Source: Candidatus Abawacabacteria bacterium (GTDB lineage Bacteria > Patescibacteriota > Gracilibacteria > RBG-16-42-10). Taken from it: a stretch of 64,000 nucleotides of DNA. Position 1 is the first letter of the stretch, and each line of letters begins with the position of its first letter. Under the pieces are notes generated by a model. The model did not search any database. It had not been told where the DNA came from and worked only from the letters and a program-made list of their open reading frames with translations. The DNA is taken from contig JACQZO010000020.1 of assembly GCA_016207805.1 (NCBI GenBank), forward strand, positions 35,634-99,633, read 5' to 3'. Both the position numbers and the translations under genes were made by a program. This document shows positions 20,461 to 36,185 of this stretch, in pieces.

Positions 20461-20503
20461 AGATGGCTCAAAGATAAAAGCTTAGAAGTAAGTAAACAAA
20501 TGT

Positions 20504-21247
20504 ATGCAGGATTTTTTTATCATTGATGATGTCAAAGTGTTTGGGCGAAAAGTAGATGATGTGGCAATCAGAGATATCGATAATATCGTGATTACTCAAG
20601 AGAGCTTATTACATGTGGTAAGACACTTCTCACAACTTAGTCAACAAAGCAGAAAAAGTTTATTAGAGAAAAAGCATGATACTGAAAGGCAGATAGAAGT
20701 TACGGAAAAAATGATCGATGAATTGCTGCATACTGCTGGCTCCAAATTTCATCCTCAATTACAAGATTTGCATTACGTACTTTCATGCTTACTTAGCTAT
20801 ACTAAAGGACATGTTACTGCTGGCCTTAAGGCTCCTTGGATAGAGTTTTCTTCTTTGCCAGGAGAATACTATACAGAGATTCATTTCACTATTACATCTG
20901 AACAAAAAGAAGAGTTAGGACTATCACAAGACGAATTCATAGGTACACTAGGAGCTGTACCAATCAATGAAGAAAATATCGCTTTTGTTCAGCCAGAACA
21001 AAGAGGAGCAGGAGATAAAGCTGATGATATTATTGTGAATATAATTAAAGAATTAGATCCACCACTGACTGATACCATTACTATCGGCTTAGCAAAAAAC
21101 CCTGAAACATTAGTAGTACGACTAACTACTATCTTTACTTCCGATGGCAAGTTTTCGCCGCTATTTCCTAATGCCGAAAAGCAGTCACCAGAGGAGTTTG
21201 CCTATAATAAACAATGGTGGGAACAATACGCCTTTTTTAAGAGCTGA
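20504..21247 (+). CDS. hypothetical protein
   Basis: 247 aa ORF between members 9 and 10. No recognisable motif. Its stop codon lies inside an AGAGCTR heptamer tract. Confidence 0.6.
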   Translation: MQDFFIIDDVKVFGRKVDDVAIRDIDNIVITQESLLHVVRHFSQLSQQSRKSLLEKKHDTERQIEVTEKMIDELLHTAGSKFHPQLQDLHYVLSCLLSYTKGHVTAGLKAPWIEFSSLPGEYYTEIHFTITSEQKEELGLSQDEFIGTLGAVPINEENIAFVQPEQRGAGDKADDIIVNIIKELDPPLTDTITIGLAKNPETLVVRLTTIFTSDGKFSPLFPNAEKQSPEEFAYNKQWWEQYAFFKS

Positions 21248-21272
21248 GAGCTAAGAGCTAAATGCTAAGAGG
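21241..21272 (+). repeat. heptamer tract, AGAGCTR class, overlapping the stop of the 20504-21247 ORF
   Basis: gagctga gagctaa gagctaa atgctaa gagg. Confidence 0.8.
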
Positions 21273-21345
21273 TGTTTATGTAAATATTTAGCTTTGGCTT
21301 TAGGGACCAAATGAATTATGCTACTAGCAGGCATAATTTCATTGT

Positions 21346-22953
21346 ATGAATCAAAACTGTACTCAATGCCACAACAGTTTCCTCATCAGTGATCATGATA
21401 GTGCTTTTTATCAGAAAGTTTCACCGGAAATAAAAGGTAGCAAATACATTGTTCAAAATCCCCAGCTTTGTCCTGATTGTAGACAAAAGCGACGACTTCG
21501 CTTTAGAAACGAAAGGCATTTATATGCACGGCATTGTGATTTGTGCCAAAAAGATATCATTGCTCTTTATCCTCAGAGCACTTCTTTTCCCGTTTATTGT
21601 CCTAACTGTTGGTGGAGTGATAATTGGGATGCTACTCAATACGGTCTCGCCTTTTCCCCACAATCTGAAGTTTTTTCTCAGATCAAAACATTATTTCATA
21701 CTGTACCCAGAATATCGCTGATCAATATTGAAAGTGAAAATAGTACCTATGCCCATGATGCTAGTCACAATAAAAATTGCTATTTAGTTTTCTCTGCTGC
21801 TCACTGCCAGGATTCGCTCTATCTTACCGACTGTGGTTTTATTAGAAATTCTTTAGACTGTTATTGGTGTCTGGATTGTGAATTGTGCTACGAGGGCATT
21901 TCGCTCACTAAATGCTATCAAACTTTCTTTAGTATTCATTGCCATAATTTAAACTTTTCCTATTTTTGTTTTGATTGTCACAATTGCAACTATTGCTTTG
22001 GTTGCTTCAATCTGAATAACAAAGAATATTATATTTTTAATCAACCGTATACCAAAGAAGCTTATCTGCAAAAGTTAGCTCAATATCAAAAGCAGCTAAG
22101 CACTTGGTCGGGCAATCAACTTCTCTGCAATGAAGTGAAGATCTTTTGGCACAAACAACCACACAAGTATGCTAACACTAATATAATCGACAATTGCACT
22201 GGCGATTTCTTAGTGAATTGTAAAAATTGCCAAGATTGTTTTAATGTCGTAAATAGTCAAGATTGCAAATACTTATACGATAATCACACTCTCAAAGATA
22301 GCTATGATTGTAATATTTCCGGACAGTCTGATCTCCTCTATAATTGCCAAAGCTGTTGGGGATTTATGAATATTTGCTGTAGTTTTTCAGCTCATTGCAG
22401 TAATCTCTATTATTCAGATAGCTGCTTTTATTGCGAAAATTGTTTTGGTTGTGTAGGCCTGAACCACAAAAAGTATTGCATCTTTAATAAGCAATATACG
22501 AAAGAAGATTTTGATCGGCTTGCACCACAATTAATTCAGTTACTGGTAGATAAAAATGCTTGGGGTGAGTTTTTCCCAAGCGAGATTGCCCCGATAGAAG
22601 AAAGTGATTCCGTACTTCAATATTACTTTCCCCCGACTGATGAAATCCCAATTGATGAGATAGTAGGGCATTCTTCTTTAGAGTCCATTCTCACTCATGA
22701 ACAAAGCTGTAGAGCCTGTAGTAAAAAGTATCTCATTATTAAGCAAGAAGAAGATTTTTACTATCAGCATCAACTCCCATTTCCGCCACTATGCCCCACC
22801 TGTAGACATAAAAGGCGCATGCAGCAAAAAAATCCACGAAAATTGTACAGTAGACACTGCCAGCAATGTCAGCAAGCAGTGTCATCTTCATACCCGGATA
22901 TTGATCCTAGAGTAATTTATTGTGAACAATGTTATGCCCAAAGTGCTCTATAA
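21346..22953 (+). CDS. Cys-rich family, array member 10 (N1+ N2+ C1+ C2+), shortest copy
   Basis: 535 aa. CTQCHN..CPDCRQKRRLRFRNE..RHCDLCQKDIIALY..VYCPNCWW. C-module SCRACSKKYLIIKQEE..CPTCRHKRR..HCQQCQ..IYCEQCY. Sister of member 7 (shared PH(Q/K)YA..NCTG(N/D)(Y/F)LV.C.NC.(N/D)CFN...(A/S)QDCKY(I/L)YD block). Confidence 0.9.
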   Translation: MNQNCTQCHNSFLISDHDSAFYQKVSPEIKGSKYIVQNPQLCPDCRQKRRLRFRNERHLYARHCDLCQKDIIALYPQSTSFPVYCPNCWWSDNWDATQYGLAFSPQSEVFSQIKTLFHTVPRISLINIESENSTYAHDASHNKNCYLVFSAAHCQDSLYLTDCGFIRNSLDCYWCLDCELCYEGISLTKCYQTFFSIHCHNLNFSYFCFDCHNCNYCFGCFNLNNKEYYIFNQPYTKEAYLQKLAQYQKQLSTWSGNQLLCNEVKIFWHKQPHKYANTNIIDNCTGDFLVNCKNCQDCFNVVNSQDCKYLYDNHTLKDSYDCNISGQSDLLYNCQSCWGFMNICCSFSAHCSNLYYSDSCFYCENCFGCVGLNHKKYCIFNKQYTKEDFDRLAPQLIQLLVDKNAWGEFFPSEIAPIEESDSVLQYYFPPTDEIPIDEIVGHSSLESILTHEQSCRACSKKYLIIKQEEDFYYQHQLPFPPLCPTCRHKRRMQQKNPRKLYSRHCQQCQQAVSSSYPDIDPRVIYCEQCYAQSAL

Positions 22954-22967
22954 TTTTACCACTACAC

Positions 22968-23384
22968 TTACTTTAGTGATTCCACGTATTTTTTAAAGTT
23001 ATCTAATATCGCTTGCCAACCAGTTCGTTGCTGCTCTTCACTATGGGTATTTTCCATTTCAAATGTTTCAACTATTTTTGTTCCATCTCCTTCAGTAGAA
23101 AATACTACCTGCACTTTGCGCCCATCATCAATAGTATATTCAATAATTTTATGTTCTTGAACATCAGTATATTGTCCAGTGAAGTCAAAACTAGAAGATA
23201 AATCTTTTGCACGCATAGTTGAAGAAAACCGTCCCCCAACTCGTAAGTCATTGTGAGCTTCTGGACATTCCCAATCATCCTGAGCAAAGAGCCATTGGCA
23301 AATATGGGCAGGTTCTACCCAACATTGCCAAACCTTTTCTACTGGAGCGTTGATACTAATTTCTACCGTAATACTCTTCGCCAT
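22968..23384 (-). CDS. SRPBCC superfamily protein, AHSA1 (activator of Hsp90 ATPase homolog 1-like) domain
   Basis: 138 aa. ITVEISINAPVEKVWQCWVEPAHICQW..TGWQAILDNFKKYVE is the typical AHSA1/START-like pattern. Confidence 0.8.
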   Translation of the reverse strand: MAKSITVEISINAPVEKVWQCWVEPAHICQWLFAQDDWECPEAHNDLRVGGRFSSTMRAKDLSSSFDFTGQYTDVQEHKIIEYTIDDGRKVQVVFSTEGDGTKIVETFEMENTHSEEQQRTGWQAILDNFKKYVESLK

Positions 23385-23405
23385 AAATTTTTTAGTTAAT
23401 TCTAA

Positions 23406-23843
23406 TTACACTTTACTAGCACAATTAAACATCCATTGCACACCATACTTATCAGTACAAGTACCGAAGTAGTCCCCCCAAAACATTTCTTGCAAGGCCA
23501 TTTCTACTTTACCCCCAGCTGATAAAGCAGCAAACAGTTTATCTGTTTCAGATCGAGTATCGGGTTCCAGATTAATATAGATATTATTGCCAAACTTCAC
23601 TTGAAAACCCATTGATTCTGGTGCATCAGTACCCATTAACAAATGTCCCCCCAAGATAGGGAGCGCAATATTCATAATCAGATTCTTGTCTTCTTCTGCC
23701 ATGGGTGGTTGACCTGGTTGCACAGGTACCTCAGAAAACCGGCTTACTTTACCCTGGAATTCTGTACCAAATACACTTTTGTAAAAATTAAAAGCCTCCT
23801 CCGTCTGTCGAGTAAAATTGAGGTAAGTACTGACGCTAGCCAT
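23406..23843 (-). CDS. VOC (glyoxalase/bleomycin resistance fold) family protein, PhnB-like
   Basis: 145 aa. YLNFTRQTEEAFNFYKSVFG..LMGTD..MFWGDYFGTCTDKYGVQWMFN matches the PhnB/3-demethylubiquinone methyltransferase-like VOC signature. This family is often adjacent to AHSA1 genes. Confidence 0.8.
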   Translation of the reverse strand: MASVSTYLNFTRQTEEAFNFYKSVFGTEFQGKVSRFSEVPVQPGQPPMAEEDKNLIMNIALPILGGHLLMGTDAPESMGFQVKFGNNIYINLEPDTRSETDKLFAALSAGGKVEMALQEMFWGDYFGTCTDKYGVQWMFNCASKV

Positions 23844-24090
23844 AGAAATTTAGTTATGAAATAAACCGGACTTTCCTACAGTACTTTCTCCCTAAAAAGA
23901 GTGCAAGAATATTTTAAGACTCTCCACAAACAGGCTTGTTGTAAAAAACTTTCTACAGATTTTCAAAGAGAAAGTAATAGCTTTAGTTAGCGAAGAATGA
24001 TCAAACAGACCAGGCTAGACGTATCGGTCACTGTTTACAGTTATTCACGACATGCTATACTGCACATAGTTACAAAACAATTTAGCATTT

Positions 24091-25743
24091 ATGGCAAGCA
24101 AACAATACGCATGCCAGGACTGCTCTGCTCTTTATTTTGTCTCAGACAAAGAGCAGGCTTTCTTGAACAAGCTGCAAATTCCCAATCCAGTAACTTGTTT
24201 CGAATGTGGCCAAAAACAACGTTTGAGCTTTAGAAACAGTAGTTCCTTATACAATCGTAAATGCGATCATTCAGGAGAGGCAATTATTTCTATTTACGCT
24301 CCCGACAAACCATATAAAGTCTATAAAAGTGACTATTGGTTTAGTGACAAATGGGATGCAGCTGATTATGGCCAAGAAATTGATTTTTCTCGTCCTTTGT
24401 TCCCTCAACTAAAAGAGTTGCAACTTAAAGTGCCCCGGTTAGCATTGTTAAACTTTAATGCAGAAAACAGTGATTACTGTAATTCCACAGTTGGTAATAA
24501 AAATTGTTACTTAATTTTTGGTGGAGACCACAATCAGGATTGTCTATTTGGGAATCTCAGTATGCACAATGAAAAAGTAGTAGATAGTGATGTCAGCAAT
24601 CAGAACAAAGTATGTTACATGATGAGTGACTGTACCAATTGCTATCAGTGCCAATTTGCTTTCGACTGCAAAAGTTGCAGTAATTGTTTTTTCATTAGCG
24701 ACTGTAGCAATTGCCAAGACTGTATTCTTTGCACCAACCTTCATAACAAACAATTTTGTATTAACAATGAACAATTAAGTAAAGAGGCTTATCAACAAAA
24801 AGCAAATGAACTTTTAAATGGCAGCAGAAAGATGCAAAAAGAGCTAATGGAGCAATTTCAATCTTTACGGAGTACACGCACTGTAAAATTCTCTCATATG
24901 GTTTCATGTGAAGATTCCAGTGGGGATTATCTGAAAAGTTGTAAGGGATGTCACAATTGCTTCGACTCTTCAGAAAGCGAAGATCTATCGAATGTTATCT
25001 TTGCTACTAAAGCTAAAGACACTCATAACTCAAGCATGCTCGGTGATCAAACTGAGCTTAGCTATGATATTATCAGCACTTCAAATTGTTATAATTCTAA
25101 ATATTCTTTTGGTGTCTTAGATAGCTCCAATGTGGAGTATTCTGATCTGGTTTTGAATTGCCATGACTTATTTGGCTGTGTGTGTTTGAAAGGAAAAGAA
25201 TATGCAATTTTAAACAAAGTATATTCTAAAACTGACTTCAATATACTACGCAGTAAACTAATAGAGCACATGAAGAAAACTGGTGAATGGGGAAAGTTCT
25301 TGCCCAAAGAACTTTCTTGCTTTGGTTATAATGAATCTTGTGCCCAAGAATATTATCCCTTAACAAAAGAAGAGGCTCTAAAGAGCGGCTTTAGTTGGTA
25401 TGAAAAAGACAATTCTAATAGCTATCAAGGACCTGATGTGATTATTGCCGATAATATCAAAGACATAACAGACAGCATTACCAAAGACATTTTAACTTGC
25501 ATTACTTGCCATCGAAACTACCGTGTCGTGCCGCAAGAACTGAGTTTTTATCGTGAACAAAACATTCCTGTACCACAAAGTTGTTATGCGTGCCGCTACA
25601 AATTTAGACAATCTCTACGCAATCCACGTATTCTCTGGGATCGTACTTGTATGAATTGCGATATAGCACTAAAGACTACCTATGCTCCGGAAAGAAGCGA
25701 AAGAATTTTGTGCGAAGCTTGTTATTTAAAAGAAACCTATTAA
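24091..25743 (+). CDS. Cys-rich family, array member 11 (N1+ N2- C1+ C2+)
   Basis: 550 aa. CQDCS..CFECGQKQRLSFRN..RKCDHSGEAIISIY, no YCxxC. C-module CITCHRNYRVVPQEL..CYACRYKFR..TCMNC..TTYAPERSERILCEACYLKETY. Confidence 0.9.
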   Translation: MASKQYACQDCSALYFVSDKEQAFLNKLQIPNPVTCFECGQKQRLSFRNSSSLYNRKCDHSGEAIISIYAPDKPYKVYKSDYWFSDKWDAADYGQEIDFSRPLFPQLKELQLKVPRLALLNFNAENSDYCNSTVGNKNCYLIFGGDHNQDCLFGNLSMHNEKVVDSDVSNQNKVCYMMSDCTNCYQCQFAFDCKSCSNCFFISDCSNCQDCILCTNLHNKQFCINNEQLSKEAYQQKANELLNGSRKMQKELMEQFQSLRSTRTVKFSHMVSCEDSSGDYLKSCKGCHNCFDSSESEDLSNVIFATKAKDTHNSSMLGDQTELSYDIISTSNCYNSKYSFGVLDSSNVEYSDLVLNCHDLFGCVCLKGKEYAILNKVYSKTDFNILRSKLIEHMKKTGEWGKFLPKELSCFGYNESCAQEYYPLTKEEALKSGFSWYEKDNSNSYQGPDVIIADNIKDITDSITKDILTCITCHRNYRVVPQELSFYREQNIPVPQSCYACRYKFRQSLRNPRILWDRTCMNCDIALKTTYAPERSERILCEACYLKETY

Positions 25744-25745
25744 CC

Positions 25746-25810
25746 AGAGCTGAGAGCGAAGAGCTAAGATAGAAAAATTCTCAGCTCTCAGTATTTAGCT
25801 CTTAGCTCTA
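25746..25810. repeat. heptamer inverted repeat (AGAGCTR arms) filling the member 11/12 spacer
   Basis: Left arm agagctg agagcga agagcta agat. Right arm tctcagc tctcagt atttagc tcttagc tcta. Near-identical element at 34439-34489. Confidence 0.8.
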
Positions 25811-25817
25811 ACATCCT

Positions 25818-27488
25818 ATGTACAGTACTTGCCCACAATGCTACTCACAATTCGCCATCACCCAGGATGATCTAGACTTTTATGAAAAAGTTTCTCCTGT
25901 GATTGCAGGAAAGAAATATCTTATTCCTGAACCAACTCTTTGTCCACCCTGCAGGCAGCAAAGACGCATGGCCAGAAGGAATGAGCGAAAGTTATATAAT
26001 AGAAAGTGCAACTTTTCAGGTAAACAAATTATTTCTATTTATTCATCTGATTCTCCATATAAAGTATATGAAAGCAAAATATGGTGGAGTGACGAGATTG
26101 ACGCTAAGCAGTATGGACAAAGCTTTGACTTCTCTCGCCCATTCTTTGAGCAATTTTATGAATTACAACAGCAGGTCCCTCGTCCTTCGCTTTTCAATAA
26201 AACAGTAGAGAATAGTGAATATAGTAACCATGCTGATCAACTGAAAAGTTGCTACTTAATTATGAATGGTGGCTTGTGTGAGAATTGTATGTATGGCAAT
26301 TGGATTGTATCTGCCAAAGATTGCGTCGATTGTTCCTATATTGAAGGCTGTGAGTTATGTTATGAAACAAGTTATAGCGTCAATTGTTATAATTGCCATT
26401 TCTCCATACATTGTGAAAACTGTTCTGACTCGACTTTTCTCTATGATTGCAAAAGTGTACAGCACTGTACTATGTGCGTTGGGCTCAGAAACAAAGAGTA
26501 TTGTATTTTGAATCAACAATACTCAAAAGAAGAATATGAACAAAAGTTAACTGCATTACAGTTGCATTCTTTTAATCGATTACAATCAGCTAAAGAACAA
26601 TTTCAAGAATTATTGCTCAAGGCCCCCCATCGGTCACAATTTATCGTTAATAGTGAGAACTGCAGTGGAGAAAATATTTATAATTGCCGCAATGCTGAGC
26701 AATGTTTTTATGTTCATAATTCTCAAGATACTAAATATTGCTACAACTCTTTAGGAATTACTGACGGTTACGATGTCTATGAAACTGGTATGGAATGTGA
26801 ATTGCAGATTGAAACTCATGCTATGAATCGTTCCAAAAATGTCGGCTTCTCTAGCGCATCCTATGACAATAGCAATATTTGGTATTGTGACCTTTGTCAT
26901 AATTCTCAAAATCTATTTGGCTGTATTGGATTAAAAGGAGAAAAGTATTGTATTTTGAACAAACAGTATAGCAAAGAAGAGTACGAAATACTGGTTCCTC
27001 AAATTATTGTTCACATGCAAGCTACTGGCGAATGGGGTGAATTTTTTCCTATACCTCATGCTCCTTTTTCTTATAATGAAACTCTAGCCAACGAAGCCTT
27101 TCCCATGACAAAGGAAGCGGTATTAGCAAAGTCTTGGCTTTGGCATGAAGACAAGCTCGGCAGCACATATCAAGGTGAAGTTGTGAAAGTTCCCGATACC
27201 TCTGCCGAGGCAACAGATACTTTTATTGAAAAGATTTTGACTTGTGAAAAGTGCCAAAAACATTATCGCCTGATCAAACAAGAACTTAACTTCTACCGAG
27301 AACACCTGATTCCCATTCCCCATTGCTGCATTGAATGCCGTCACCGTCATCGCACAGCAGAAACAAATCGAATTACTCTTTTTTCGAGGAATTGTGCCAA
27401 GTGTAAGAAAACAATTGAAACAACTTATCCACCAACAGCTCCAGAAGTTATTTACTGTGAAGACTGCTATTTAAGACATACCTATTGA
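25818..27488 (+). CDS. Cys-rich family, array member 12 (N1+ N2- C1+ C2+)
   Basis: 556 aa. CPQCYSQFAITQDDLDFYEKVSP..CPPCRQQRR..RKCNFSGKQIISIY. C-module CEKCQKHYRLIKQEL..CIECRHRHR..NCAKC..IYCEDCY. Confidence 0.9.
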   Translation: MYSTCPQCYSQFAITQDDLDFYEKVSPVIAGKKYLIPEPTLCPPCRQQRRMARRNERKLYNRKCNFSGKQIISIYSSDSPYKVYESKIWWSDEIDAKQYGQSFDFSRPFFEQFYELQQQVPRPSLFNKTVENSEYSNHADQLKSCYLIMNGGLCENCMYGNWIVSAKDCVDCSYIEGCELCYETSYSVNCYNCHFSIHCENCSDSTFLYDCKSVQHCTMCVGLRNKEYCILNQQYSKEEYEQKLTALQLHSFNRLQSAKEQFQELLLKAPHRSQFIVNSENCSGENIYNCRNAEQCFYVHNSQDTKYCYNSLGITDGYDVYETGMECELQIETHAMNRSKNVGFSSASYDNSNIWYCDLCHNSQNLFGCIGLKGEKYCILNKQYSKEEYEILVPQIIVHMQATGEWGEFFPIPHAPFSYNETLANEAFPMTKEAVLAKSWLWHEDKLGSTYQGEVVKVPDTSAEATDTFIEKILTCEKCQKHYRLIKQELNFYREHLIPIPHCCIECRHRHRTAETNRITLFSRNCAKCKKTIETTYPPTAPEVIYCEDCYLRHTY

Positions 27489-27514
27489 ATACAGAGTAGT
27501 CGATTCCAGATTCA

Positions 27515-27547
27515 TTTATAATTTGTAATTCGTAATTTGTAATTAAT
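27515..27547 (+). repeat. heptamer tract, GTAATTY class, directly 5' of member 13 start
   Basis: tttataa tttgtaa ttcgtaa tttgtaa ttaat, then ATG. Confidence 0.85.
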
Positions 27548-29233
27548 ATGACCCAATCCTGTAAACATTGCCAACAAAGCTTCACCATCACTCAAGATGA
27601 TTTAAATAAAATCGCTCATCTTTCCCCTACTATTGCAGGTATTAAATTAACTCTACCACCACCGAAACTTTGTCCTGAATGTCGCAAACAAAGAAGAGCA
27701 ACCTATAGGAATGAACGGAAGCTCTATCACAGGAAATGTAATCATTGCCAGAAAGAAATTATTTCTGTCTATGCACCAGAAAAACCTTACAATGTCTTCT
27801 GTCTCACTTGTTGGTGGGATGACAAACATAATCCTGCTGATTATGGTCAAGAGTTCGACTTCAGTAGACCTTTCTTTGCTCAATATGATGAATTACTTAA
27901 GAAAGTCCCGCTACCAGCTTTAATTTCTTCGCCTGATGCTGAAGAAAATAATTGCTCGTATATCAACTATGCCGGTAATAGCAAAAATTGCTACATGACA
28001 TTTGATGCTGATTTTAATGAAGATTCATATTATTCCAATATCTTGAAACATTCTAAGAATTGCATGGAATGTTCTTCACTGCAGGAATCTGAATTATGTT
28101 ATGAGACATTAATATCCACGGGTTGTTATCATACCTTCTTTTCTCAAGAACTTACCAATTGCCAAGATTGTTACTTTCTCAAAAACTGTATTGGCTGTCG
28201 TAATTGTTTGCTTTGTGTGAATCTTAACCACAAAGAATATTGCATCATGAATAAGCAATACACTAAGGAACAATACTTAGAGTATATGAGCAAGATAGAT
28301 TTGGGTGATCGCAAGACTATTCAAGCATTAGAACAAGAACTAGAAAAACTAGCGGCATCAGCACCTCATAAGTTTATTCATGGCGTAAACTTAGAGAATT
28401 GTACCGGAGACTATATGGTCAACGCTAAAAATTGCCAGAATTGTTTTATGGTGGGAAATGTAGAAGATCTCACCTACTGTGACTCACTTTATCGAGCAAA
28501 AGACTGCATGGATGTCTCCTCCTTTGGCGAACAATTAGAGCGCGCCTATGAAACTGTTTCCAGCGGTATCAATGCCTACGAATTACAATTTTGCCAAGTT
28601 TGCGCCACCAATACCTATAATCTTCAATACAATTATGGCTCCAGAAATAGTAAAAATAGCTTTGGCTCAGTAGCCCTAAAATCGAATGAATACTGCATTC
28701 TTAATAAGCAATATACAAAAGACACATATGAAAAGTTAGTGTCTAAGATTGTTGAGCATATGAAGAGCACTGGTGAATGGGGTGAATATTTCCCGATGTC
28801 TATTTCTCCCTATGCTTACAATGAAACAGTAGCCAATGAATTCTTTCCCCTAAGCAAAGAACAAGCTCTTAAACTGGACGCTACCTGGAAAGAAGAAGAT
28901 CTGATGAATCGTTATGAAGGCCCTAAAGTGGTAGTGCCAGAAAATATCAAAGATGTTTCGGAGCAAGTTTTAAAACAGATACTTACCTGCGATAAATGTG
29001 GCAAAAACTATAAACTCATTGCCCAAGAATTAAAGTTTTATCAAGAACAAAAACTACCTTTACCAATATGGTGCTTCAATTGTCGTCATGAAAAAAGGAT
29101 GAGCAAACGAAACCCACAACATTTATGGGATCGCAATTGTAGCCAGTGCAATACCTCATTAAAGACTAGCTACTCTCCTAATCGCCCAGAAAAAATCTAC
29201 TGCGAGCCTTGCTACCAAAAACTAGTTTTCTAA
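27548..29233 (+). CDS. Cys-rich family, array member 13 (N1+ N2+ C1+ C2+), partial Cys erosion in core
   Basis: 561 aa, collinear with member 2 (PDAEE.NC.Y.N.AG, EDLTYCDSL, GSRNS). Several core Cys are replaced (SFGSVALKSNEYC versus CFGCIALKSNEYC; YETLISTGCYHTFFSQELTNC versus YQCVDCTQCYNLLYSQDCANC). Confidence 0.9.
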   Translation: MTQSCKHCQQSFTITQDDLNKIAHLSPTIAGIKLTLPPPKLCPECRKQRRATYRNERKLYHRKCNHCQKEIISVYAPEKPYNVFCLTCWWDDKHNPADYGQEFDFSRPFFAQYDELLKKVPLPALISSPDAEENNCSYINYAGNSKNCYMTFDADFNEDSYYSNILKHSKNCMECSSLQESELCYETLISTGCYHTFFSQELTNCQDCYFLKNCIGCRNCLLCVNLNHKEYCIMNKQYTKEQYLEYMSKIDLGDRKTIQALEQELEKLAASAPHKFIHGVNLENCTGDYMVNAKNCQNCFMVGNVEDLTYCDSLYRAKDCMDVSSFGEQLERAYETVSSGINAYELQFCQVCATNTYNLQYNYGSRNSKNSFGSVALKSNEYCILNKQYTKDTYEKLVSKIVEHMKSTGEWGEYFPMSISPYAYNETVANEFFPLSKEQALKLDATWKEEDLMNRYEGPKVVVPENIKDVSEQVLKQILTCDKCGKNYKLIAQELKFYQEQKLPLPIWCFNCRHEKRMSKRNPQHLWDRNCSQCNTSLKTSYSPNRPEKIYCEPCYQKLVF

Positions 29234-29273
29234 TTTCTAATTTGTAATTCGTAATCCGTAATTTGTAATTCTT
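29231..29273 (+). repeat. heptamer tract, GTAATTY class, forming the whole member 13/14 spacer
   Basis: taatttc taatttg taattcg taatccg taatttg taattct t, then ATG. The first unit includes the member 13 TAA stop. Confidence 0.85.
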
Positions 29274-30929
29274 ATGACCACCAATTGCCATCAATGCCAA
29301 AATGCTTTCACGCATACTCCCGAAGACCAAAAGTTCTATACATTATTTAATGTACCAGCTCCTAAGACTTGTCCTAGTTGTCGTATGCATCGCCGCATGA
29401 TGGAACGTAATGTCAAAAGTCTTTACTACCGCAAATGTGATCTCACTGGAGAGCAAATTATTTCACAGTATCATAGTAATGTGCCATTTCCTGTCTATCA
29501 AACAAGTGCTTGGTGGGGAGACGGCTGGGATGCTAGTCAATATGGACAAGACTTTGATTTCTCTCGCCCATTTTTTGAGCAATTGAAAGAGTTACAAAAT
29601 AAAGTACCTCGTGTTGCTCTATGGATTATTCCCACCCTAGAAAATAGTGATTTCACTAATAATACAGGCTATTTAAAGAACTGTTATTTGATCATGGAAA
29701 GTGATTACGACGAAGATTGCTACTATTCCAATTTACTTAAGAAGTCTAAAAATCTCTGTGATTGTTCAGTCTGTTATGAAGCTGAGCTTTGCTATGAATG
29801 TATTGATTGCCAAAACTGCCATGAACTGCGTTATTCACAAGATTGTAAAGGCTGCCAAAATAGTTGGTTCTTAAACAATTGCCAAAGCTGTAAGGATTGC
29901 ATTGGTTGTATCAATCAACGCCATAAGCAATACATGATTTTCAATCAGCAATATAGCAAAGATGAATATGAAAAAATCAAAGCTGAATTAGCTTTACACA
30001 CTAGAAGCGGGGTAAAAAAAGTAGCCGAAAAAGCAAAAACACTTTTCTTATTGCATCCTTATAAAAATGTTAGCAGTGAAAAAGTAGAGAACTGCATTGG
30101 TGACCATCTCTATAATGCTAAAGATTGTTACTTCTGCTTTGATTGTAAAGACATCGAAGATGCCCGTTACTGTACCAAACTTTCTTTGCAGGTAAAAACC
30201 TGTATGGATTATAGCTCTTGGGGCGACAAAGCTGAGCTGGTTTATCAATGTAGCTCCAGTGGCGATGGTGCTTACAATATCAAGTTCTGCACCACCTGTA
30301 CCACCAATGTCCGGGACTTAGAATATTGCGATCTCTGTACTTCATCATCTGATTTATTTGGTTGTGTAGGTATGAAGAAAAAACAATATTGTATTCTTAA
30401 TAAACAATACTCGAAGGATGAATACTTTGCGCTCAAAGCAAAAGTTATCGAACACATGAAAGTAACCGGTGAGTATGGAGAATACTTCCCTGCGGCTAAT
30501 TGTCCCTTCGCCCACAATGAAACCATGGCCCAAGACTTTTTTCCTTTAACTAAAGAAGAAGCACTAGCTCAAGGATATCGCTGGCATGATGAAGACACGA
30601 CCAATCGTTACCAAGGCACTCAAGTAACGGTACCTGAAACCAGTGAAGAAGTTTCTGATGATATCACTAAGCATATTCTTACTTGTGCTACTTGTGGTAA
30701 GAACTACCGTTTCATCATCCAAGAATTACGACTATATCGTCAATTAGGAGTACCACCACCAGTACAATGTTTCGATTGTCGCCACAAAAGAAGAATCAAT
30801 GCGCGCACCCCATTTCAAATTTGGCAAAGAGATTGTGCTAAGTGTCAGCAAAAAATGTACAGCAGCTATGCCCCAAACAGACCAGAAATTGTTTACTGTG
30901 AACAGTGTTATCAAGAAACGGTTTATTAA
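29274..30929 (+). CDS. Cys-rich family, array member 14 (N1+ N2- C1+ C2+)
   Basis: 551 aa, 42 Cys by my count. CHQCQ..CPSCRMHRR..RKCDLTGEQIIS. Core ELCYECIDCQNCHELRYSQDCKGCQNSWFLNNCQSCKDCIGC. VRDLEYC. GEYGEYFP. C-module CATCGKNYRFIIQEL..CFDCRHKRR..DCAKC..VYCEQCY. Confidence 0.9.
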   Translation: MTTNCHQCQNAFTHTPEDQKFYTLFNVPAPKTCPSCRMHRRMMERNVKSLYYRKCDLTGEQIISQYHSNVPFPVYQTSAWWGDGWDASQYGQDFDFSRPFFEQLKELQNKVPRVALWIIPTLENSDFTNNTGYLKNCYLIMESDYDEDCYYSNLLKKSKNLCDCSVCYEAELCYECIDCQNCHELRYSQDCKGCQNSWFLNNCQSCKDCIGCINQRHKQYMIFNQQYSKDEYEKIKAELALHTRSGVKKVAEKAKTLFLLHPYKNVSSEKVENCIGDHLYNAKDCYFCFDCKDIEDARYCTKLSLQVKTCMDYSSWGDKAELVYQCSSSGDGAYNIKFCTTCTTNVRDLEYCDLCTSSSDLFGCVGMKKKQYCILNKQYSKDEYFALKAKVIEHMKVTGEYGEYFPAANCPFAHNETMAQDFFPLTKEEALAQGYRWHDEDTTNRYQGTQVTVPETSEEVSDDITKHILTCATCGKNYRFIIQELRLYRQLGVPPPVQCFDCRHKRRINARTPFQIWQRDCAKCQQKMYSSYAPNRPEIVYCEQCYQETVY

Positions 30930-30967
30930 TTCTGAATGCAGAATGCTGAATTCTGAATTTAATTCAG
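30928..30967 (+). repeat. heptamer tract, CTGAATK class, 3' of member 14 stop
   Basis: aattctg aatgcag aatgctg aattctg aatttaa ttcag. Confidence 0.8.
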
Positions 30968-30992
30968 CACCTTGCACTAAATTGATTCTTCT

Positions 30993-32672
30993 ATGAAAAC
31001 AGTCTGTATAAATTGCCGAAATCCCTATGAAATCACTGAGAGTGATATGGATTTCTACGACAAAATCTCGCCAGTAATTGATGGTAAAAAGTATCCCCTG
31101 CCGGCACCAACCAAATGTCCGAGTTGTCGTGTGCAAAGAAGAATGGCCTGGAGAAATGAAAGAACCCTTTATAATCGCAAATGCGATCTTTGCAAAAAGA
31201 GTATTATTTCCATTTTTACTCCTGAAGCTAAACATCCAGTCTATTGTCCTACCTGCTTTGTTAGTGATAAATGGGATGCTACGCACTATGGTAGAAATTT
31301 TGATTTCTCTCGCCCTTTTTTCGAACAATATAGCGAATTACAAAAGGTCGTTCCCATGACTGCATTGCATCATGAAAGAGAAAATGAAAATTGCGAATAT
31401 ACGAATCTTACTTCCGATAACAAAAATTGCTACCTCGTATTTGCCGCTGGTAACAATGAATTTGCTTTCTATACGACCTACCTCCAAAGATGTCGTGATA
31501 TCGCTGATTGCTTTTTTATCTTTGATAGTGAGCTTTGTTACGAATGTATCGATTGTTATCATGGCTACAATTTACTCTATAGTCACAACTGTCAGAATTG
31601 CTCTGATTCACAATTACTCTTTGATTGTAAAAGCTGCAAACATTGTTTCGGTTGTGTAAATCTCACCAATAAGGAGTTCTACATTTTTAATCAACCCTAT
31701 ACTAAAGAAGAATACGCTAACAAAATAAAAGAGTTAACCAACTCTCGTGAATCTTTTGCCGAAGCAAGAAAAGAAGTAGAAAAAATAAAATTAGCTTTAC
31801 CTCATAAATACTATTCTGGGCACAACAATGAAAACTTTTCTGGGGACCATATATTCTCCTCAAAAAATGCCTTCAACTGTTTTGACTGTAACAATTTAGA
31901 GGATTGCAGCTATTGCACTTGGATGACCAAGAGCAAAGACTGTCAGGATTGTTACGCTTGGGGAAATACTGGAGAGCTTGGTTATGAAAATCATTTATGC
32001 GGCAATGGCTATCACAATGTGAAGTTCTGTGATGGTTGTAGCAATGATATTTCCAACTTGATGTACTCAGAATGTATTCGCAACAGTTCCCATGATATCT
32101 TTGGTTGCATCAGTTTATTTAGAAAAGAATACTGTATCCTCAATAAACCATATGCTAAAGAAGACTACTTTAAGCTACTCGCTCAGATTATGGAGCACAT
32201 GCAAAGAAACGGTGAATGGGGTCAGCCTTTCCCTATTTCTTTATCACGCTTTGCTTACAATGAAACAATAGCCCAGGAGTATGCCCCTTTAAGCAAAGAA
32301 GCGGTGATCTCTTTAGGTGGCAGATGGAAAGAAGAAGAACTAAAAACTCATTACCAAGGTAAATCCACGGCTATTCCCTATGATATCAACGAAGTATCCG
32401 ACGATATTTTGAAAGAGATTTTAAGTTGTAAAACGTGTGGCAAAAATTATCGTTTGATTGCCCAAGAGCTTAACCTGTATCGAAAGCTAAAAGTTTCAGT
32501 ACCAGAAAACTGTTTTGCCTGCCGTTACAAAAATAGATTCAATCAAAGAAATCCTAGAAAGTTATATGAGCGCATCTGTCATTCTTGCCAAATAGAAATT
32601 CAAACCACTTATGATCCCCAGAGACCAGAAACCATACTCTGTGAAACATGTTACTTAAAAGAAACACATTGA
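30993..32672 (+). CDS. Cys-rich family, array member 15 (N1+ N2+ C1+ C2+)
   Basis: 559 aa. CINCRN..CPSCRVQRRMAWRNE..RKCDLCKKSIISIF..VYCPTCFV. C-module CKTCGKNYRLIAQEL..CFACRYKNR..ICHSC..ILCETCYLKETH. Confidence 0.9.
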   Translation: MKTVCINCRNPYEITESDMDFYDKISPVIDGKKYPLPAPTKCPSCRVQRRMAWRNERTLYNRKCDLCKKSIISIFTPEAKHPVYCPTCFVSDKWDATHYGRNFDFSRPFFEQYSELQKVVPMTALHHERENENCEYTNLTSDNKNCYLVFAAGNNEFAFYTTYLQRCRDIADCFFIFDSELCYECIDCYHGYNLLYSHNCQNCSDSQLLFDCKSCKHCFGCVNLTNKEFYIFNQPYTKEEYANKIKELTNSRESFAEARKEVEKIKLALPHKYYSGHNNENFSGDHIFSSKNAFNCFDCNNLEDCSYCTWMTKSKDCQDCYAWGNTGELGYENHLCGNGYHNVKFCDGCSNDISNLMYSECIRNSSHDIFGCISLFRKEYCILNKPYAKEDYFKLLAQIMEHMQRNGEWGQPFPISLSRFAYNETIAQEYAPLSKEAVISLGGRWKEEELKTHYQGKSTAIPYDINEVSDDILKEILSCKTCGKNYRLIAQELNLYRKLKVSVPENCFACRYKNRFNQRNPRKLYERICHSCQIEIQTTYDPQRPETILCETCYLKETH

Positions 32673-32680
32673 GACTAGAA

Positions 32681-32753
32681 AGCAAAGAGCAAAGAGCAAG
32701 GAGCAAAGATATAGCTCCCCTAAACACCTTGCTCTTTGCTCTCTACTCTTTGC
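32681..32753. repeat. heptamer inverted repeat (AGCAAAG class) in the member 15/16 spacer
   Basis: agagcaaagagcaagg (32686-32701) is perfectly complementary to ccttgctctttgctct (32727-32742), a 16 bp stem with a loop of about 25 nt. The arms are AGCAAAG AGCAAAG AGCAAGG AGCAAAG and CCTTGCT CTTTGCT CTCTACT CTTTGC. Confidence 0.85.
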
Positions 32754-32768
32754 ACTTTAACCTATTCT

Positions 32769-34436
32769 ATGTCTCAAGCCTGCATCAATTGTCATCAGCC
32801 ATTCGAAATATTTCCCGAAGATTCACACTTCTATGAAAAGGTTTCACCGGTGGTTCATGGCCAAAAGCTTTTGATCCCATCACCTACTCATTGTCCTACT
32901 TGCCGAATGCAGAGACGATTAGCGTTTAGGAATATGTGGCACCTGTATAACAGAAAGTGTGATCTGAGTGGCAAGGCGATTATTTCCATGTATGCTCCAG
33001 ACAGCGGTTACACAGTATATGAAAATCAGGAATGGTGGTCAGACAAATGGGATGCTCTTTCTTATGGTCGAGAAATAGATTGGAATAAGTCTATCATTAT
33101 GCAAATACATGAATTAATAAAAGTAGTACCGAAGTTTGCTACCCAAAACTCTACCTCAGAAAATTGCAATTATTCTAATATGGTATCGCAGAGTAAGAAT
33201 TGCTATCTCGCATTTGGTTGCGTAGAAAGTGAAGATTGTTTCTACGGCCATATAATTGGCAAATGTAAGCAGTCGATGGATATTATGTATACGTATGGAT
33301 CGGAACGATGCTATGAATGTGTCGACTGCCGCGATTCATACAATCTCAAATTTAGTAAAGATTGTGATAATTGTAGCGACAGTAGTTTTTTAGAAAATTG
33401 CAAAAGCTGTAAACATTGTTTTGGCTGTTTTGGCTTGAGACACAAAGAGTATCATTTCTTTAATCAGCCGTGCTCCCAAGAACAATATGAACATAAGTTA
33501 GCAGAATTTCGCGTGATTTCTACAGAAAAGAAAAAAGTTATTCAGAGTCAATTAGCTGAACTGAGAAAGCAAACACCTGTTCTTTATATGCACTGTATTG
33601 GTAATGAAGATTGCAGTGTCGATTACATCTACTACAGTAAAAATGTTCATGACTCATATGATGTCACTCATGCCGAAGACTGTCGTTATTGCACTACCAC
33701 CAAGGGCAAAGACTGTTATGATATTACTTATGCTAGGGTAGAAAATGAACTGGGTTATGAAGACTTATTTGTACAAGGTTATAATATTCTTTTTTCCCGA
33801 GATTGCGTCGTCAATAACCAACACTTAATTTATTGTGGCAATTGTTTTTCTTGCAAAAACTGCTTTGCTTGTGTGGGGCTACGTAGTAAGGAGTACTGTA
33901 TTTTAAACAGGCAATATTCTAAGGAAGAATATGAAAGTCTCCTGCCAAAGTTAGTAACCTTAATGCAACAACATAATGAATGGGGTGAGTTTTTTCCCAT
34001 GACTCTTTCACTTTTCGCTTACAATGAAAGTGCTGCCAATGAATACTTCCCCTTAACGAAAGAACAAGCTCAAGCACAAGGATTACGCTGGAAAGACAAT
34101 AATGAAATAAACCAATATACTGGACCAAAAGTACAACCTCCTGATGACATTACTCAAGTTTCAGAAAGTATTCTCAAAGAAATTCTCACCTGCGAAACCT
34201 GCCAAAAAAATTACCGTATCGTAGCTCAAGAATTTGCTTTTTATCAAGAGCAAAATATCAGCATCCCTAAAGAATGCTTCTTTTGCAGAAATAAAAGACG
34301 CTTACTTTCACGCAACCCAAGAAAACTTTTTCATCGTAATTGCACCAAATGTAACACCGCGTTACAGACCACTTATGCTCCGGAAAGACCTGAAAAGATT
34401 TTGTGTGAGAATTGTTACTTGAAAGAAACCTATTAA
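32769..34436 (+). CDS. Cys-rich family, array member 16 (N1+ N2- C1+ C2+)
   Basis: ATG at 32769 (MSQACINCHQ) is preferred, because the ORF-track start at 32736 lies inside the repeat arm. CPTCRMQRRLAFRN..RKCDLSGKAIISMY. C-module CETCQKNYRIVAQEF..CFFCRNKRR..NCTKC..TTYAPERPEKILCENCYLKETY. Confidence 0.9.
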   Translation: MSQACINCHQPFEIFPEDSHFYEKVSPVVHGQKLLIPSPTHCPTCRMQRRLAFRNMWHLYNRKCDLSGKAIISMYAPDSGYTVYENQEWWSDKWDALSYGREIDWNKSIIMQIHELIKVVPKFATQNSTSENCNYSNMVSQSKNCYLAFGCVESEDCFYGHIIGKCKQSMDIMYTYGSERCYECVDCRDSYNLKFSKDCDNCSDSSFLENCKSCKHCFGCFGLRHKEYHFFNQPCSQEQYEHKLAEFRVISTEKKKVIQSQLAELRKQTPVLYMHCIGNEDCSVDYIYYSKNVHDSYDVTHAEDCRYCTTTKGKDCYDITYARVENELGYEDLFVQGYNILFSRDCVVNNQHLIYCGNCFSCKNCFACVGLRSKEYCILNRQYSKEEYESLLPKLVTLMQQHNEWGEFFPMTLSLFAYNESAANEYFPLTKEQAQAQGLRWKDNNEINQYTGPKVQPPDDITQVSESILKEILTCETCQKNYRIVAQEFAFYQEQNISIPKECFFCRNKRRLLSRNPRKLFHRNCTKCNTALQTTYAPERPEKILCENCYLKETY

Positions 34437-34438
34437 CC

Positions 34439-34489
34439 AGAGCTAAGAGCTGAGAGCGAAGAGCTAAGATCGGCTCACTCTTAGCTCTA
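34439..34489. repeat. heptamer inverted repeat (AGAGCTR arms) in the member 16/17 spacer
   Basis: agagcta agagctg agagcga agagcta agat cggctcac tcttagctcta. Homologous to the 25746-25810 element. Confidence 0.8.
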
Positions 34490-34496
34490 ACACCCT

Positions 34497-36161
34497 ATGT
34501 CCAATACTTGCCCACAATGTTCCTCACAATTCACCATCGCCCAGGAAGACCTAGACTTTTATGAAAAGGTTTCACCCGAAATTAACTGCAAAAAGTTTTT
34601 AATTCCAGCACCATTACAATGTCCTGATTGTCGGGAACGTAATCGCATTGCTTTTCGAAATGAGCGAAAACTTTATCAAAGAAAATGTGATCTTTGTAAA
34701 AAAGAAATCATTGCCGTTCATGCTTCAGAAAAAAAGACCAAGGTATATTGCACTACTTGTTGGTGGAGTGATAATTGGAACTCCGAAGATTCTGGCCAAG
34801 ATTTCGATTTCAGCAGACCATTTTTTGCTCAACTTCAGGAAGTATTGCTCAAGGCACCTCTGCTCAATCTATTTGCCAAGAATAATGTCAATAGTGACTA
34901 TGTAAACCAAGAGACTGATGACAAAAACTGCTATCTAAATGCCGGGGGACATTTTAATGAAGATTGTTATTACAATACTTACTGTATCAAAGGGAAAAAT
35001 AATGTAGATAATTACTGGCTGATGAGTTCAGAACTTTGTTATATGTGCCTGCACTCGGAAAGTTGCTATCAAAGTAGTTACTTACAATTTTGCCAAAATG
35101 TCAGAGATAGTCAGTACTGTTTTGATTGCAAAGATTGTGATCACTGTTTTGGTTGTTATGGCTTAAGGCATAAAAAGTATTACTTTTTTAATGAACAATT
35201 GACGAAAGAAGCTTACGAAGAAAAAGTAGCCCAGGCTACGAGAGACTATGAAGCGAGAGAATTAACGAAACAAAAAGCAGCTGAGTACTTTCTCAAGTAT
35301 CCTCACAAAGCAACCCAAAATACTCAATGTGAAGACGTTACTGGTGATCAGCTCACTCAATGTAAAAATGCTTATAACTGCTTTAATTCCGAAAAGCTCC
35401 AAGATTGTAAAAATGTTTTTATTGCAGTGGAACTTAAGGATGTTCAAGATATTGGCTCAATTGGTTGGGGAGAGTTAGTGTATTTTTCTGCTTCTTCGAT
35501 GCAATGTTATCAAGTTTGTTTTTGTTCTCATTCATCCGAGATCAAGCAGGCACTTTATTGTTTCCAATGCTTCAATATTCAGCATTGCTTCGGCTGCGTC
35601 GGTTTGCATAATAAAGCATATTGCATTCTCAATAAGCAATATAGCAAAGAACAATATGAAGAACTGCTAGCAAAAGTTATTGCCCATATGCAAAACACAG
35701 GAGAATGGGGACAGTTTTTTCCTATGGCATTATCGCCTTTCGCCTACAATGAAACGGTTGCTCAAGAATATTTTCCTAGAACTCAAGAAGAAATTATTGA
35801 TGAAGGACTCAATTGGCATGATCCACATTCTTTAAATCGTTATGAAGGACCAAAAGTTGCCATTCCTAATCGTATTGAAGAAACACAAGATGAGTTGGTA
35901 AAACAAATTTTAACTTGCGAAGGCTGTGGCAAAAACTACAAGCTCATTCAACAAGAGTTAGAGTTCTATCGTCACATGCATTTGCCAGTGCCTCATCATT
36001 GTTGGGAATGCCGTCATCGTGAACGGATTAATCGTAATCCGCCAAGAAAGCTCTGGAATAGAGAATGTTCATCATGCCAAATAAAGTTACAAACTACTTA
36101 CGCTCCCGAAAGAAAAGAACAAATTGTTTGTGAGCCCTGCTACCTAAAAGAAACGTATTGA
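34497..36161 (+). CDS. Cys-rich family, array member 17 (N1+ N2+ C1+ C2+)
   Basis: 554 aa. CPQCSSQFTIAQEDLDFYEKVSP..CPDCRERNR..RKCDLCKKEIIAVH..VYCTTCWW. C-module CEGCGKNYKLIQQEL..CWECRHRER..ECSSC..TTYAPERKEQIVCEPCYLKETY. Confidence 0.9.
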   Translation: MSNTCPQCSSQFTIAQEDLDFYEKVSPEINCKKFLIPAPLQCPDCRERNRIAFRNERKLYQRKCDLCKKEIIAVHASEKKTKVYCTTCWWSDNWNSEDSGQDFDFSRPFFAQLQEVLLKAPLLNLFAKNNVNSDYVNQETDDKNCYLNAGGHFNEDCYYNTYCIKGKNNVDNYWLMSSELCYMCLHSESCYQSSYLQFCQNVRDSQYCFDCKDCDHCFGCYGLRHKKYYFFNEQLTKEAYEEKVAQATRDYEARELTKQKAAEYFLKYPHKATQNTQCEDVTGDQLTQCKNAYNCFNSEKLQDCKNVFIAVELKDVQDIGSIGWGELVYFSASSMQCYQVCFCSHSSEIKQALYCFQCFNIQHCFGCVGLHNKAYCILNKQYSKEQYEELLAKVIAHMQNTGEWGQFFPMALSPFAYNETVAQEYFPRTQEEIIDEGLNWHDPHSLNRYEGPKVAIPNRIEETQDELVKQILTCEGCGKNYKLIQQELEFYRHMHLPVPHHCWECRHRERINRNPPRKLWNRECSSCQIKLQTTYAPERKEQIVCEPCYLKETY

Positions 36162-36185
36162 ATTCTGAATTAAACTTAATCTTCT

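Follow-up and report, generated by a model that had tools for sequence, protein, structure and literature searches.

Two groups of small proteins come closest to the family described here. Members of the Pfam family PF13451 (zf_Tbcl, a "probable treble clef domain") are small bacterial and phage proteins, likewise without an assigned function, and small Methanosarcina mazei proteins that have a CxxC-x17-CxxC domain (PF23477/TIGR04272) were found to bind zinc by inductively coupled plasma mass spectrometry (ICP-MS) (PMC12704099). Here we analyze an open reading frame (ORF) of 551 amino acids (aa) with 42 cysteines, located at 29274..30929 on the plus strand of a 64,000-nucleotide stretch of contig JACQZO010000020.1 from a Candidatus Abawacabacteria bacterium, hereafter the window. 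The focal protein is one of about 20 copies encoded in tandem, 19 of which are full length in the window, and when a truncated copy at the window start (3..629) is counted as member 1, the focal ORF is member 14 and members 4, 9, and 15 are 7280..8932, 18730..20388, and 30993..32672. Both kinds of finger occur in the family but in a different arrangement: behind every PF13451-like finger comes another of a different kind, which resembles the domain of the small, single-domain M. mazei proteins, and the pair occurs twice per protein, around a core of about 300 aa without Pfam coverage. We conclude that the protein is cytoplasmic, rich in cysteine, and about 550 aa long and has the layout module 1 (M1), block 1 (B1), block 2 (B2), linker, module 2 (M2).

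An earlier note on this DNA had claimed that the two ends of each paralog are homologous. Modules were cut from the family alignment, the N module up to ...WW (focal aa 1-81) and the C module from focal aa 467, and measured about 82 to 100 aa and about 85 aa, respectively, across the 19 full-length paralogs. A hidden Markov model (HMM) of the 19 N modules matched 19 of 19 C modules over the whole module with 23 to 65 bits, the reverse search also recovered 19 of 19, and comparison of N with C modules by hhalign gave a probability of 99.7 and an E value of 3.6e-26 over 78 columns at 37% identity. Similarity was detected within single proteins as well, with BLASTP E values of 1.4e-9 over 71 aa inside the focal ORF and of 7e-13, 9e-8, and 4e-6 inside the paralogs starting at 30993, 7280, and 18730. 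The similarity was not merely one of CxxC spacing: N-versus-C comparisons averaged 48.3 bits, shuffles in which the cysteines were held fixed averaged 0.2±3.1 bits (n=950, maximum of 18.8), and a mean of 24.8 bits remained when every cysteine was masked to X. Moreover, an AlphaFold2 model of the focal protein, built on an 85-sequence alignment of the family (predicted local distance difference test [pLDDT] of 88.6, predicted template modeling score [pTM] of 0.89), gave both ends a single order of elements, beta-beta-alpha-alpha-beta-beta-(beta)-alpha. We conclude that the N and C ends are homologous, as had been proposed. Of the four-element template that the note had written for both ends, the fourth element, YC-x2-C, is absent from the focal N end (where the positions read C, T, Q, and A) and from 11 of 19 N ends. 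In addition, the example strings quoted for member 15 do not lie inside 29274..30929; they were found at 31005..32654, in the next paralog, 30993..32672 (+), whose N end (31005..31259) and C end (32427..32654) have all four zinc sites intact.

Each module contains two fingers. In the N module, finger 1 (29274..29399, +, aa 1-42) has C5, C8, C33, and C36 intact, and finger 2 (29400..29519, +, aa 43-82) is degenerate at C55, T58, Q76, and A79, with the fold retained in the model. In the C module (30672..30926, +, aa 467-551), all eight ligands are intact, namely C471, C474, C499, and C502 of finger 1 and C521, C524, C542, and C545 of finger 2; this module has an isoelectric point (pI) of 9.1 and, when modeled alone, reached a pLDDT of 90.9. 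The modules had been labeled zinc ribbons, and here the model disagreed. Each of the four fingers has its first CxxC in a beta-hairpin, whereas the second CxxC opens a helix and not a second hairpin knuckle (hairpins E2-4/E11-13, E51-54/E61-64, and E517-520/E527-530; helices H34-42, H77-81, H500-510, and H543-550), as seen for C33/C36 at H34-42, C499/C502 at H500-510, and C542/C545 at H543-550. A hairpin knuckle combined with a helix N terminus is the hallmark of the treble clef, and all fingers are predicted to have it.

The assignment to treble clefs agrees with the two Pfam families named above. PF13451 matched the focal protein with 32.1 bits (cutoff of 24) in two stretches, the better at aa 2-41, and matched 36 of the 85 family members at an E value of ≤0.01; the likeness is to finger 1 of the module, with the pattern CxxC-x3-F/Y...FY...P.P..C..CR. 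The ligand set of two CxxC pairs is complete in both modules of the focal protein (C5/C8/C33/C36 and C471/C474/C499/C502) whereas members 4 and 9 lack a complete set in the N module and 6 of the 19 paralogs lack one in the C module. Moreover, the focal model superposed on phage "putative zinc-ribbon domain" proteins over 36 to 41 residues with a root mean square deviation of 0.6 to 0.8 Å and 32 to 33% identity. For finger 2, PF23477 (zf_Tbcl_2) scored 15.5 bits in the focal protein, below its cutoff of 27, and 26.4 bits in the neighbor 30993..32672, in which the NCBIfam model TIGR04272 (CxxC-x17-CxxC) scored 19.9 bits, below its cutoff of 36. Nevertheless, 46 of the 85 members matched PF23477 at an E value of ≤0.01 (best, 7.6e-9), and finger 2 is thus a relative of this family although the focal copy falls below the threshold. 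The corresponding spacing, C521-x2-C524-x17-C542-x2-C545 in the focal C module, is present in 19 of 19 C modules and 8 of 19 N modules. We conclude that each module is a pair of treble-clef fingers, zf_Tbcl followed by CxxC-x17-CxxC zf_Tbcl_2, linked by an arginine-rich helix.

A double finger is also the hallmark of the LIM domain, as in CRP1/CRP2 and muscle LIM protein, and it is to the second LIM finger that finger 2 of the module can be aligned. A search of the Protein Data Bank (PDB) with the module profile matched the LIM structure 1b8t with an E value of 1.6e-4 through C..C..(17)..YC..CY, and the profile of the whole family likewise gave weak matches to the second LIM finger only. The spacer between fingers is 2 residues in LIM domains, however, and here it is an 18-residue arginine-rich helix (C36 to C55). 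A LIM assignment was rejected on this spacer, on the alignment of finger 2 alone, on the match of PF00412 to only 4 of 85 members at an E value of ≤0.01, and on the lack of any LIM match by Foldseek.

Between the modules, the core is itself a duplication. Block 1 (29550..29981, +, aa 93-236) consists of a helix and then a solenoid with a period of 12 residues, and ends in CIGCINQRHKQYMIFNQQYSKDEYE. Block 2 (29982..30437, +, aa 237-388) consists of variable helices and then the solenoid, and ends in FGCVGMKKKQYCILNKQYSKDEYF. In the focal ORF, the block-ending motif occupies aa 209-233 and aa 362-385, near both places given in the earlier note. When the blocks were compared by hhalign, the probability was 99.9 and the E value 4.5e-35 over 135 columns. 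Moreover, real comparisons averaged 69.1 bits against -2.9±3.8 bits for shuffles with fixed cysteines, 49.7 bits remained with cysteines masked, and 29.2 bits remained when the common tail FGC..KEY..YSKEEYE was removed. These comparisons agree on a duplicated block of about 145 aa, as the earlier note had held. The region that follows (30438..30671, +) has a helix and the conserved GE(W/Y)GE(F/Y)FP...YNET...FPLTKEEA stretch (aa 389-436) and then a variable linker (aa 437-466). With end modules and blocks both being true homologues, the proposed layout of module, block, block, GEWGEFFP linker, and module is upheld. We conclude that each block of about 145 aa has a helix followed by a narrow solenoid, with a period of 12 residues, and ends in the KEY..N.QYSKEEYE helix.

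The solenoid of block 1 carries a ladder of cysteines at every third residue. In the focal protein these are C173/176/179/182, C191/194, and C203/206/209/212, and across the family the first quartet is conserved at 72 to 83% and the last at 88 to 94%. Cysteine-to-cysteine spacing in block 1 was enriched 3- to 4-fold at each multiple of 3 up to a lag of 36 and was about 0.1 at other lags, autocorrelation of the column profile had period 3 with peaks at lags 12 and 24, and when the sequence was written in rows of 12 residues, cysteines were confined to columns 1, 4, 7, and 10. In block 2, many of the ladder cysteines are replaced by leucine, serine, or alanine, and modeled strands over aa 334-374 repeat as EEEE--E--E--. 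The periodicity points to coils of 12 residues with inward-facing cysteines, probably linked by metal.

A search of described sequences and folds returned little that resembles this core. Sequence searches of Pfam, NCBIfam, and the PDB gave no match over the core, and Foldseek found no PDB match at an E value of ≤1e-3 for the whole model or for the isolated C module. The top nonsignificant Foldseek matches were left-handed beta-helix proteins of the hexapeptide-repeat class (LpxA, LpxD, GlmU, and gamma-carbonic anhydrase), which are likewise solenoids whose repeat length, as here, is a multiple of 3 or 6; other weak matches were to tandem C2H2 fingers and to short phage zf_Tbcl proteins. In hexapeptide-repeat proteins, however, the coil has 18 residues with inward isoleucine, valine, or leucine, whereas here the period is 12 and cysteine faces inward at every third residue. 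A hexapeptide left-handed beta-helix was rejected on the period, on the absence of a Hexapep Pfam match, and on Foldseek E values of ≥3.4e-3 with template modeling (TM) scores of ≤0.23. A phage baseplate protein, the sole viral match below 1e-3 in the BFVD database (E value of 7e-4), was set aside as uninformative with TM-scores of about 0.1.

A further known architecture that may be comparable is that of the beetle antifreeze protein TmAFP, a narrow beta-helix of 12-residue coils with a cysteine-filled interior that is secreted, is disulfide bonded, and has cysteines spaced by 6. The family would share the 12-residue, cysteine-filled coils but is cytoplasmic and has cysteines spaced by 3. Because the protein appears to be cytoplasmic (its N terminus is a finger, and no signal peptide was seen) and the spacing is 3, coordination of metal is likelier than disulfide bonding. 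A ladder of cysteines at every third residue in a 12-residue solenoid is possibly a new fold and might represent a novel means of constructing a protein core around metal.

The family is large and extends throughout Patescibacteria. More than 6000 clusters at 90% identity were recovered at an E value of ≤1e-5, nearly all of about 550 aa and all annotated as hypothetical, and an exhaustive search gave 1622 clusters at 50% identity at an E value of ≤1e-30. Genome matches were in Patescibacteria, including Peribacteria, Gracilibacteria, Saccharibacteria, and Nomurabacteria, among others, with the closest (71%) in Candidatus Abawacabacteria RBG_16_42_10. We note a full-length homologue at 42% identity on a contig whose bin was assigned to an archaeon, Candidatus Micrarchaeota (L019, DUGF01000091.1), which could be a binning error or a transfer between episymbiont lineages, and a 731-aa protein (P0177) with an N-terminal GNAT acetyltransferase domain ahead of a full-length family protein, which could be a true fusion or a merge in gene calling. 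No homologue was found by tblastn in 50,697 phage records, an NCBIfam scan gave no informative match, and a literature search covering PF13451, cysteine-rich tandem paralogs of the candidate phyla radiation (CPR), and zinc-finger families of Patescibacteria found no description of the present family.

Tandem arrays are the usual arrangement, with 262 family copies across 78 loci from related genomes, picked by similarity to the focal protein, and a maximum of 12 copies in 22 kb. For six paralogs of the window, orthologues at the locus of a Candidatus Abawacabacteria genome were 56 to 71% identical, and the best match within the window was 41 to 47% identical. Since orthologues are closer than neighboring paralogs, the paralogs appear to be old and individually maintained. 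We conclude from these sequence comparisons that the 19 to 20 copies are old, conserved paralogs and not a recent amplification. The order module, block, block, module excludes a single tandem duplication of a module-block unit and calls for at least two separate duplications, and given the reciprocal monophyly of N and C modules (see below) and a layout of about 550 aa that is kept throughout Patescibacteria, both duplications predate the radiation of the family. By itself, such nested duplication is ordinary protein evolution.

Two kinds of gene recur beside the arrays in the 78 loci. The first encodes a coupling ATPase of the VirD4/TrwB-like kind, found in 21 loci and within 500 bp of a family gene in 15; nearly all of these 15 are on the same strand as the array and most lie just downstream of the last family gene. 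Loci with an adjoining ATPase span several classes of Patescibacteria, and examples are L023:13369-15621, L013:11633-13906, L076:7178-9424, L042:11670-13925, L054:5870-8182, and L051:2287-4383. Among the ATPases tested, those of L054 and L051 have a zf_Tbcl_2 finger after the ATPase domain (48.7 to 50 bits), and the ATPase of L047 matches the module profile. The adjoining family copy varies and is not a single orthogroup, and the idea of one fixed paralog type beside the ATPase was rejected. A 2025 survey counted 5,713 VirD4-like genes in 2,918 Patescibacteria genomes, about 2 per genome and only 148 of them near virB4; homologues of the type IV coupling protein (T4CP) were thus mostly orphans, and the authors suggested that they may be exapted (PMC12102498). 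At about 2 genes per genome, we infer that direct adjacency in as many as 15 loci out of 78 greatly exceeds a naive expectation, although the loci are not independent.

The second recurrent neighbor encodes a TrmB-family regulator, which in the window lies at 38343..39101 on the minus strand, divergent from the paralog 39241..40908 with 140 bp between them. A TrmB gene is present in about 27 of the 78 loci; with few exceptions it occupies the opposite strand, in most cases 0 to 400 bp from a family gene, and it is a candidate dedicated regulator. We note that TrmB genes are placed several times within single arrays in L004, L024, and L033. Two further minus-strand ORFs of the window, 40918..41670 and 50788..51546, were tested as diverged TrmB copies and are not TrmB.

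We propose that the family proteins are zinc-held binding scaffolds that serve as clients or adaptors of a coupling ATPase under divergent TrmB control; this is the best single explanation of the whole, and we give it about an even chance of being right. Each protein contains 31 to 47 cysteines, the modules are basic (pI of about 9, net charge of up to +11), and the core is acidic (pI of about 5, net charge of -11 to -25). Among paralogs, the block-ending helices and the GEWGEFFP...YNET linker are best conserved, and the helices between blocks and the solenoid faces are least conserved. Zinc would hold the fingers and probably the cysteine ladders within B1 too, and the outcome would be a rigid acidic solenoid with a basic finger module at either end. 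The modules may have one shared binding partner, which could be nucleic acid or the acidic surface of a protein, and the variable solenoid faces and inter-block helices would set the specificity of each paralog. The proteins would then be clients or adaptors of the orphan VirD4-like ATPase, regulated by the divergent TrmB-type protein. The role of client or adaptor seems likeliest, as the ATPase lies directly beside related arrays and at times carries a like finger.

Clients of type IV coupling proteins (VirD4/TraD/TrwB) offer a partial parallel, in that the arrays usually lie just upstream of a VirD4-like ATPase and the proteins end in a basic C-terminal module; no relaxase or VirB4 was noted beside the arrays, however, which differs from known type IV systems. 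Many known type IV substrates have positively charged C-terminal signals. More speculatively, the family could be the missing partner of the orphan VirD4-like ATPases of Patescibacteria: some 20 long-lived paralogs would be metal-cored solenoids whose end modules dock to the ATPase or to DNA for delivery into a host bacterium or for handover of cargo, with the four inward cysteines of each 12-residue coil holding a zinc ion in a fold without a solved counterpart. We consider this combined proposal unlikely, though it is the most far-reaching.

Several observations weigh against a zinc-held scaffold that serves a coupling ATPase. The most cysteine-rich stretch of block 1, aa 150-220, has the lowest model confidence (pLDDT of 60 to 68), and with no significant PDB match for the whole model or the module, the fold gives no basis for assigning a function. 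The proteins can do without many of their zinc sites, as 11 of 19 paralogs have lost N finger 2 and 6 of 19 have lost C finger 1. Folded zinc proteins are awkward as substrates of a type IV channel. A coupling-ATPase gene was searched for in the 64-kb window and none was found, and the ATPase link therefore holds by family and not by the present locus. The 78 loci, moreover, were chosen by similarity, such that their neighbor counts are not independent and have no genome-wide background behind them. Finally, the functional steps, namely binding, metal, and secretion, are all ones that we infer.

The pattern of zinc-site loss bears on how the two ends are related. Among the 19 paralogs, the site of N finger 1 is intact in 17, that of N finger 2 in 8, that of C finger 1 in 13, and that of C finger 2 in all 19. 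Degenerate sites keep the first cysteine and have the second replaced by serine or threonine, often as C-x-x-[ST]-G-K, with N finger 2 of 42316..43998 the sole exception; this form is seen in 10 of the 11 degenerate copies of N finger 2. Because it recurs independently at N finger 2, it is a stereotyped route of zinc loss and not copied sequence. Retention of the first cysteine upon loss of zinc ligands was seen across the window, for instance at 29436..29456 in the focal ORF.

The earlier note had reported degenerate forms of the types C..(T/S)GK and (A/S)P.ER at both ends of members 4 and 9, and these were confirmed. In member 4 (7280..8932, +), site 1 is degenerate in both modules (CTAE at N and CSAE at C) and N finger 2 is degenerate too; its sister, member 9 (18730..20388, +), has a like pattern (CTSE at N and CTSA at C). 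The note's further reading, that the two ends evolve in concert, was contradicted. In a neighbor-joining tree of 38 modules, the 19 N modules formed one clade and the 19 C modules the other, and in closeness to the N module, the C module of the same protein ranked 8 and 9 of 19 in members 4 and 9. Own N-versus-C identity was 21 to 37%, not above that between different proteins. With separate clades and the own C module not nearest, there is no sign of homogenization within genes. Members 4 and 9 are mutual nearest paralogs, at 49% identity, and sisters in both subtrees, and their double loss therefore counts as one event. Moreover, paralogs 4689, 10113, 11811, and 15365 lost C finger 1 alone, relative to N site 1. 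We conclude that concerted evolution is to be dropped for, at most, correlated loss.

Correlated loss found some support in a wider sample. The losses of N site 1 and of C site 1 were associated with each other among 245 homologues (counts of 124/94/7/20, odds ratio of 3.8, Fisher p value of 0.0035) by statistics that ignore phylogeny, and C site 1 was missing from 20 of 27 proteins that had lost N site 1 and from 94 of 218 in which N site 1 was intact. The association is a hint that the two first fingers are functionally coupled. One explanation is correlated relaxation, in which the first fingers would share a ligand or touch, and loss of zinc in one would free the other with no exchange of sequence; within the window, loss of N site 1 is indeed nested within a clade that has lost C site 1. 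The sample is skewed toward relatives of the focal protein, however, and C site 1 is often lost without N site 1 (94 cases). We hold correlated relaxation to be possible and put it forward tentatively.

Two functional alternatives to a binding scaffold were also weighed, and both are less likely. The first is a redox or iron-sulfur protein or a metal store, in which the CxxCxxCxxC runs of block 1 would bind iron-sulfur clusters or buffer metal. Ten cysteines fall within 40 residues of B1, its two Cx2Cx2Cx2C quartets are conserved at 72 to 94%, and the model is unsure in precisely this region, all of which would fit such a role. The homologous B2, however, swaps most of the ladder cysteines for leucine, serine, or alanine and keeps the fold, and the ladder cysteines thus look core filling and not catalytic. 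Moreover, no ferredoxin or other iron-sulfur Pfam family matched, and paralogs that are individually conserved over long times would be unexpected in a bulk metal store. We regard a redox, iron-sulfur, or metal-store role as improbable. The second alternative, a repertoire of defense or immunity sensors in which diversified tandem paralogs recognize different invaders, would account for the large tandem arrays and the variable surfaces, but the orthologues are stable across genera and do not turn over rapidly, the proteins contain no nuclease, NTPase, or other effector domain, neither the paralogs nor the uncharacterized ORFs tested had a PADLOC match, and the family is absent from the phage records searched. 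Defense sensing is accordingly quite improbable. Weakest is the proposal that gene conversion within each gene holds its N and C modules alike, which could draw on the resemblance between the degenerate first fingers of the two ends in members 4 and 9 and on the association among the 245 homologues but is contradicted by the reciprocal monophyly and unexceptional own identity of the modules, the single event behind members 4 and 9, the four members that lost the C site only, and the rise of a like form at N finger 2, and which we therefore consider very improbable indeed.

The array as a whole spans 985..43998 on the plus strand and is interrupted by a few unrelated genes. The 19 full-length paralogs, all on the plus strand and 535 to 575 aa long, are 34 to 45% identical to the focal ORF and start at 985, 4689, 7280, 10113, 11811, 13580, 15365, 18730, 21346, 24091, 25818, 27548, 29274, 30993, 32736, 34497, 36186, 39241, and 42316. 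The partial copy at 3..629 (+), cut by the window start, encodes the C-terminal 210 aa or so and is closest to members 4 and 9 (190 to 192 bits by tblastn). A scan of 24000..39300 for promoters and terminators gave counts the same as in shuffled sequence, and operon structure thus cannot be read from it. Rfam and tRNA scans of the window found two tRNAs only, both outside the array. PADLOC found no match (E value of ≤0.01) among three paralogs and five uncharacterized ORFs within or just beyond the array.

Among the interrupting genes, a 632-aa ORF with a proline- and alanine-rich middle (2724..4622, +) begins 62 bp past the first full-length paralog and shares its strand; this ORF has no Pfam or PADLOC match and is unlike the coupling ATPases that occupy this position elsewhere. 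A DUF4328 protein (6341..7270, +) overlaps the 3' end of paralog 4689..6371, two small overlapping ORFs (8954..9253 and 9250..9561, both -) resemble by eye a RelE/ParE-type toxin and a Phd/YefM-type antitoxin, and two small genes (22968..23384 and 23406..23843, both -) break the array between paralogs 21346 and 24091. Downstream of the array lie the two tRNA genes, tRNA-Ser(GGA) at 46622..46711 (-) and tRNA-Tyr(GTA) at 46884..46969 (-), which are also the sole Rfam matches of the window. The window has a G+C content of 38.5% and also encodes dnaG, rpoD, mutS, and mutL. A 627-aa ORF (53468..55351, +) contains both a full sigma-70 factor (RpoD, regions 1.1 to 4) and adenylate kinase, with no in-frame stop at the junction and a methionine just ahead of the kinase P-loop; rpoD is separate and shorter in relatives, and the ORF may reflect a genuine fusion, the loss of a stop codon, or an error of assembly.

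Patescibacteria genomes are very small, roughly 1 Mb, and the complete genome of one relative measures 1.3 Mb. About 32 kb of a small genome of this type is devoted here to one uncharacterized family, which has more than 6000 members in very small genomes, all labeled hypothetical. We conclude that the points of interest are the unmatched cysteine-ladder solenoid, the scale of the family in small genomes, and the new link to orphan coupling ATPases. The domain map, with two treble-clef modules and two cysteine-ladder blocks, gives defined constructs and predicted metal sites, and the adjacency of the arrays to orphan coupling ATPases suggests what those ATPases act on.

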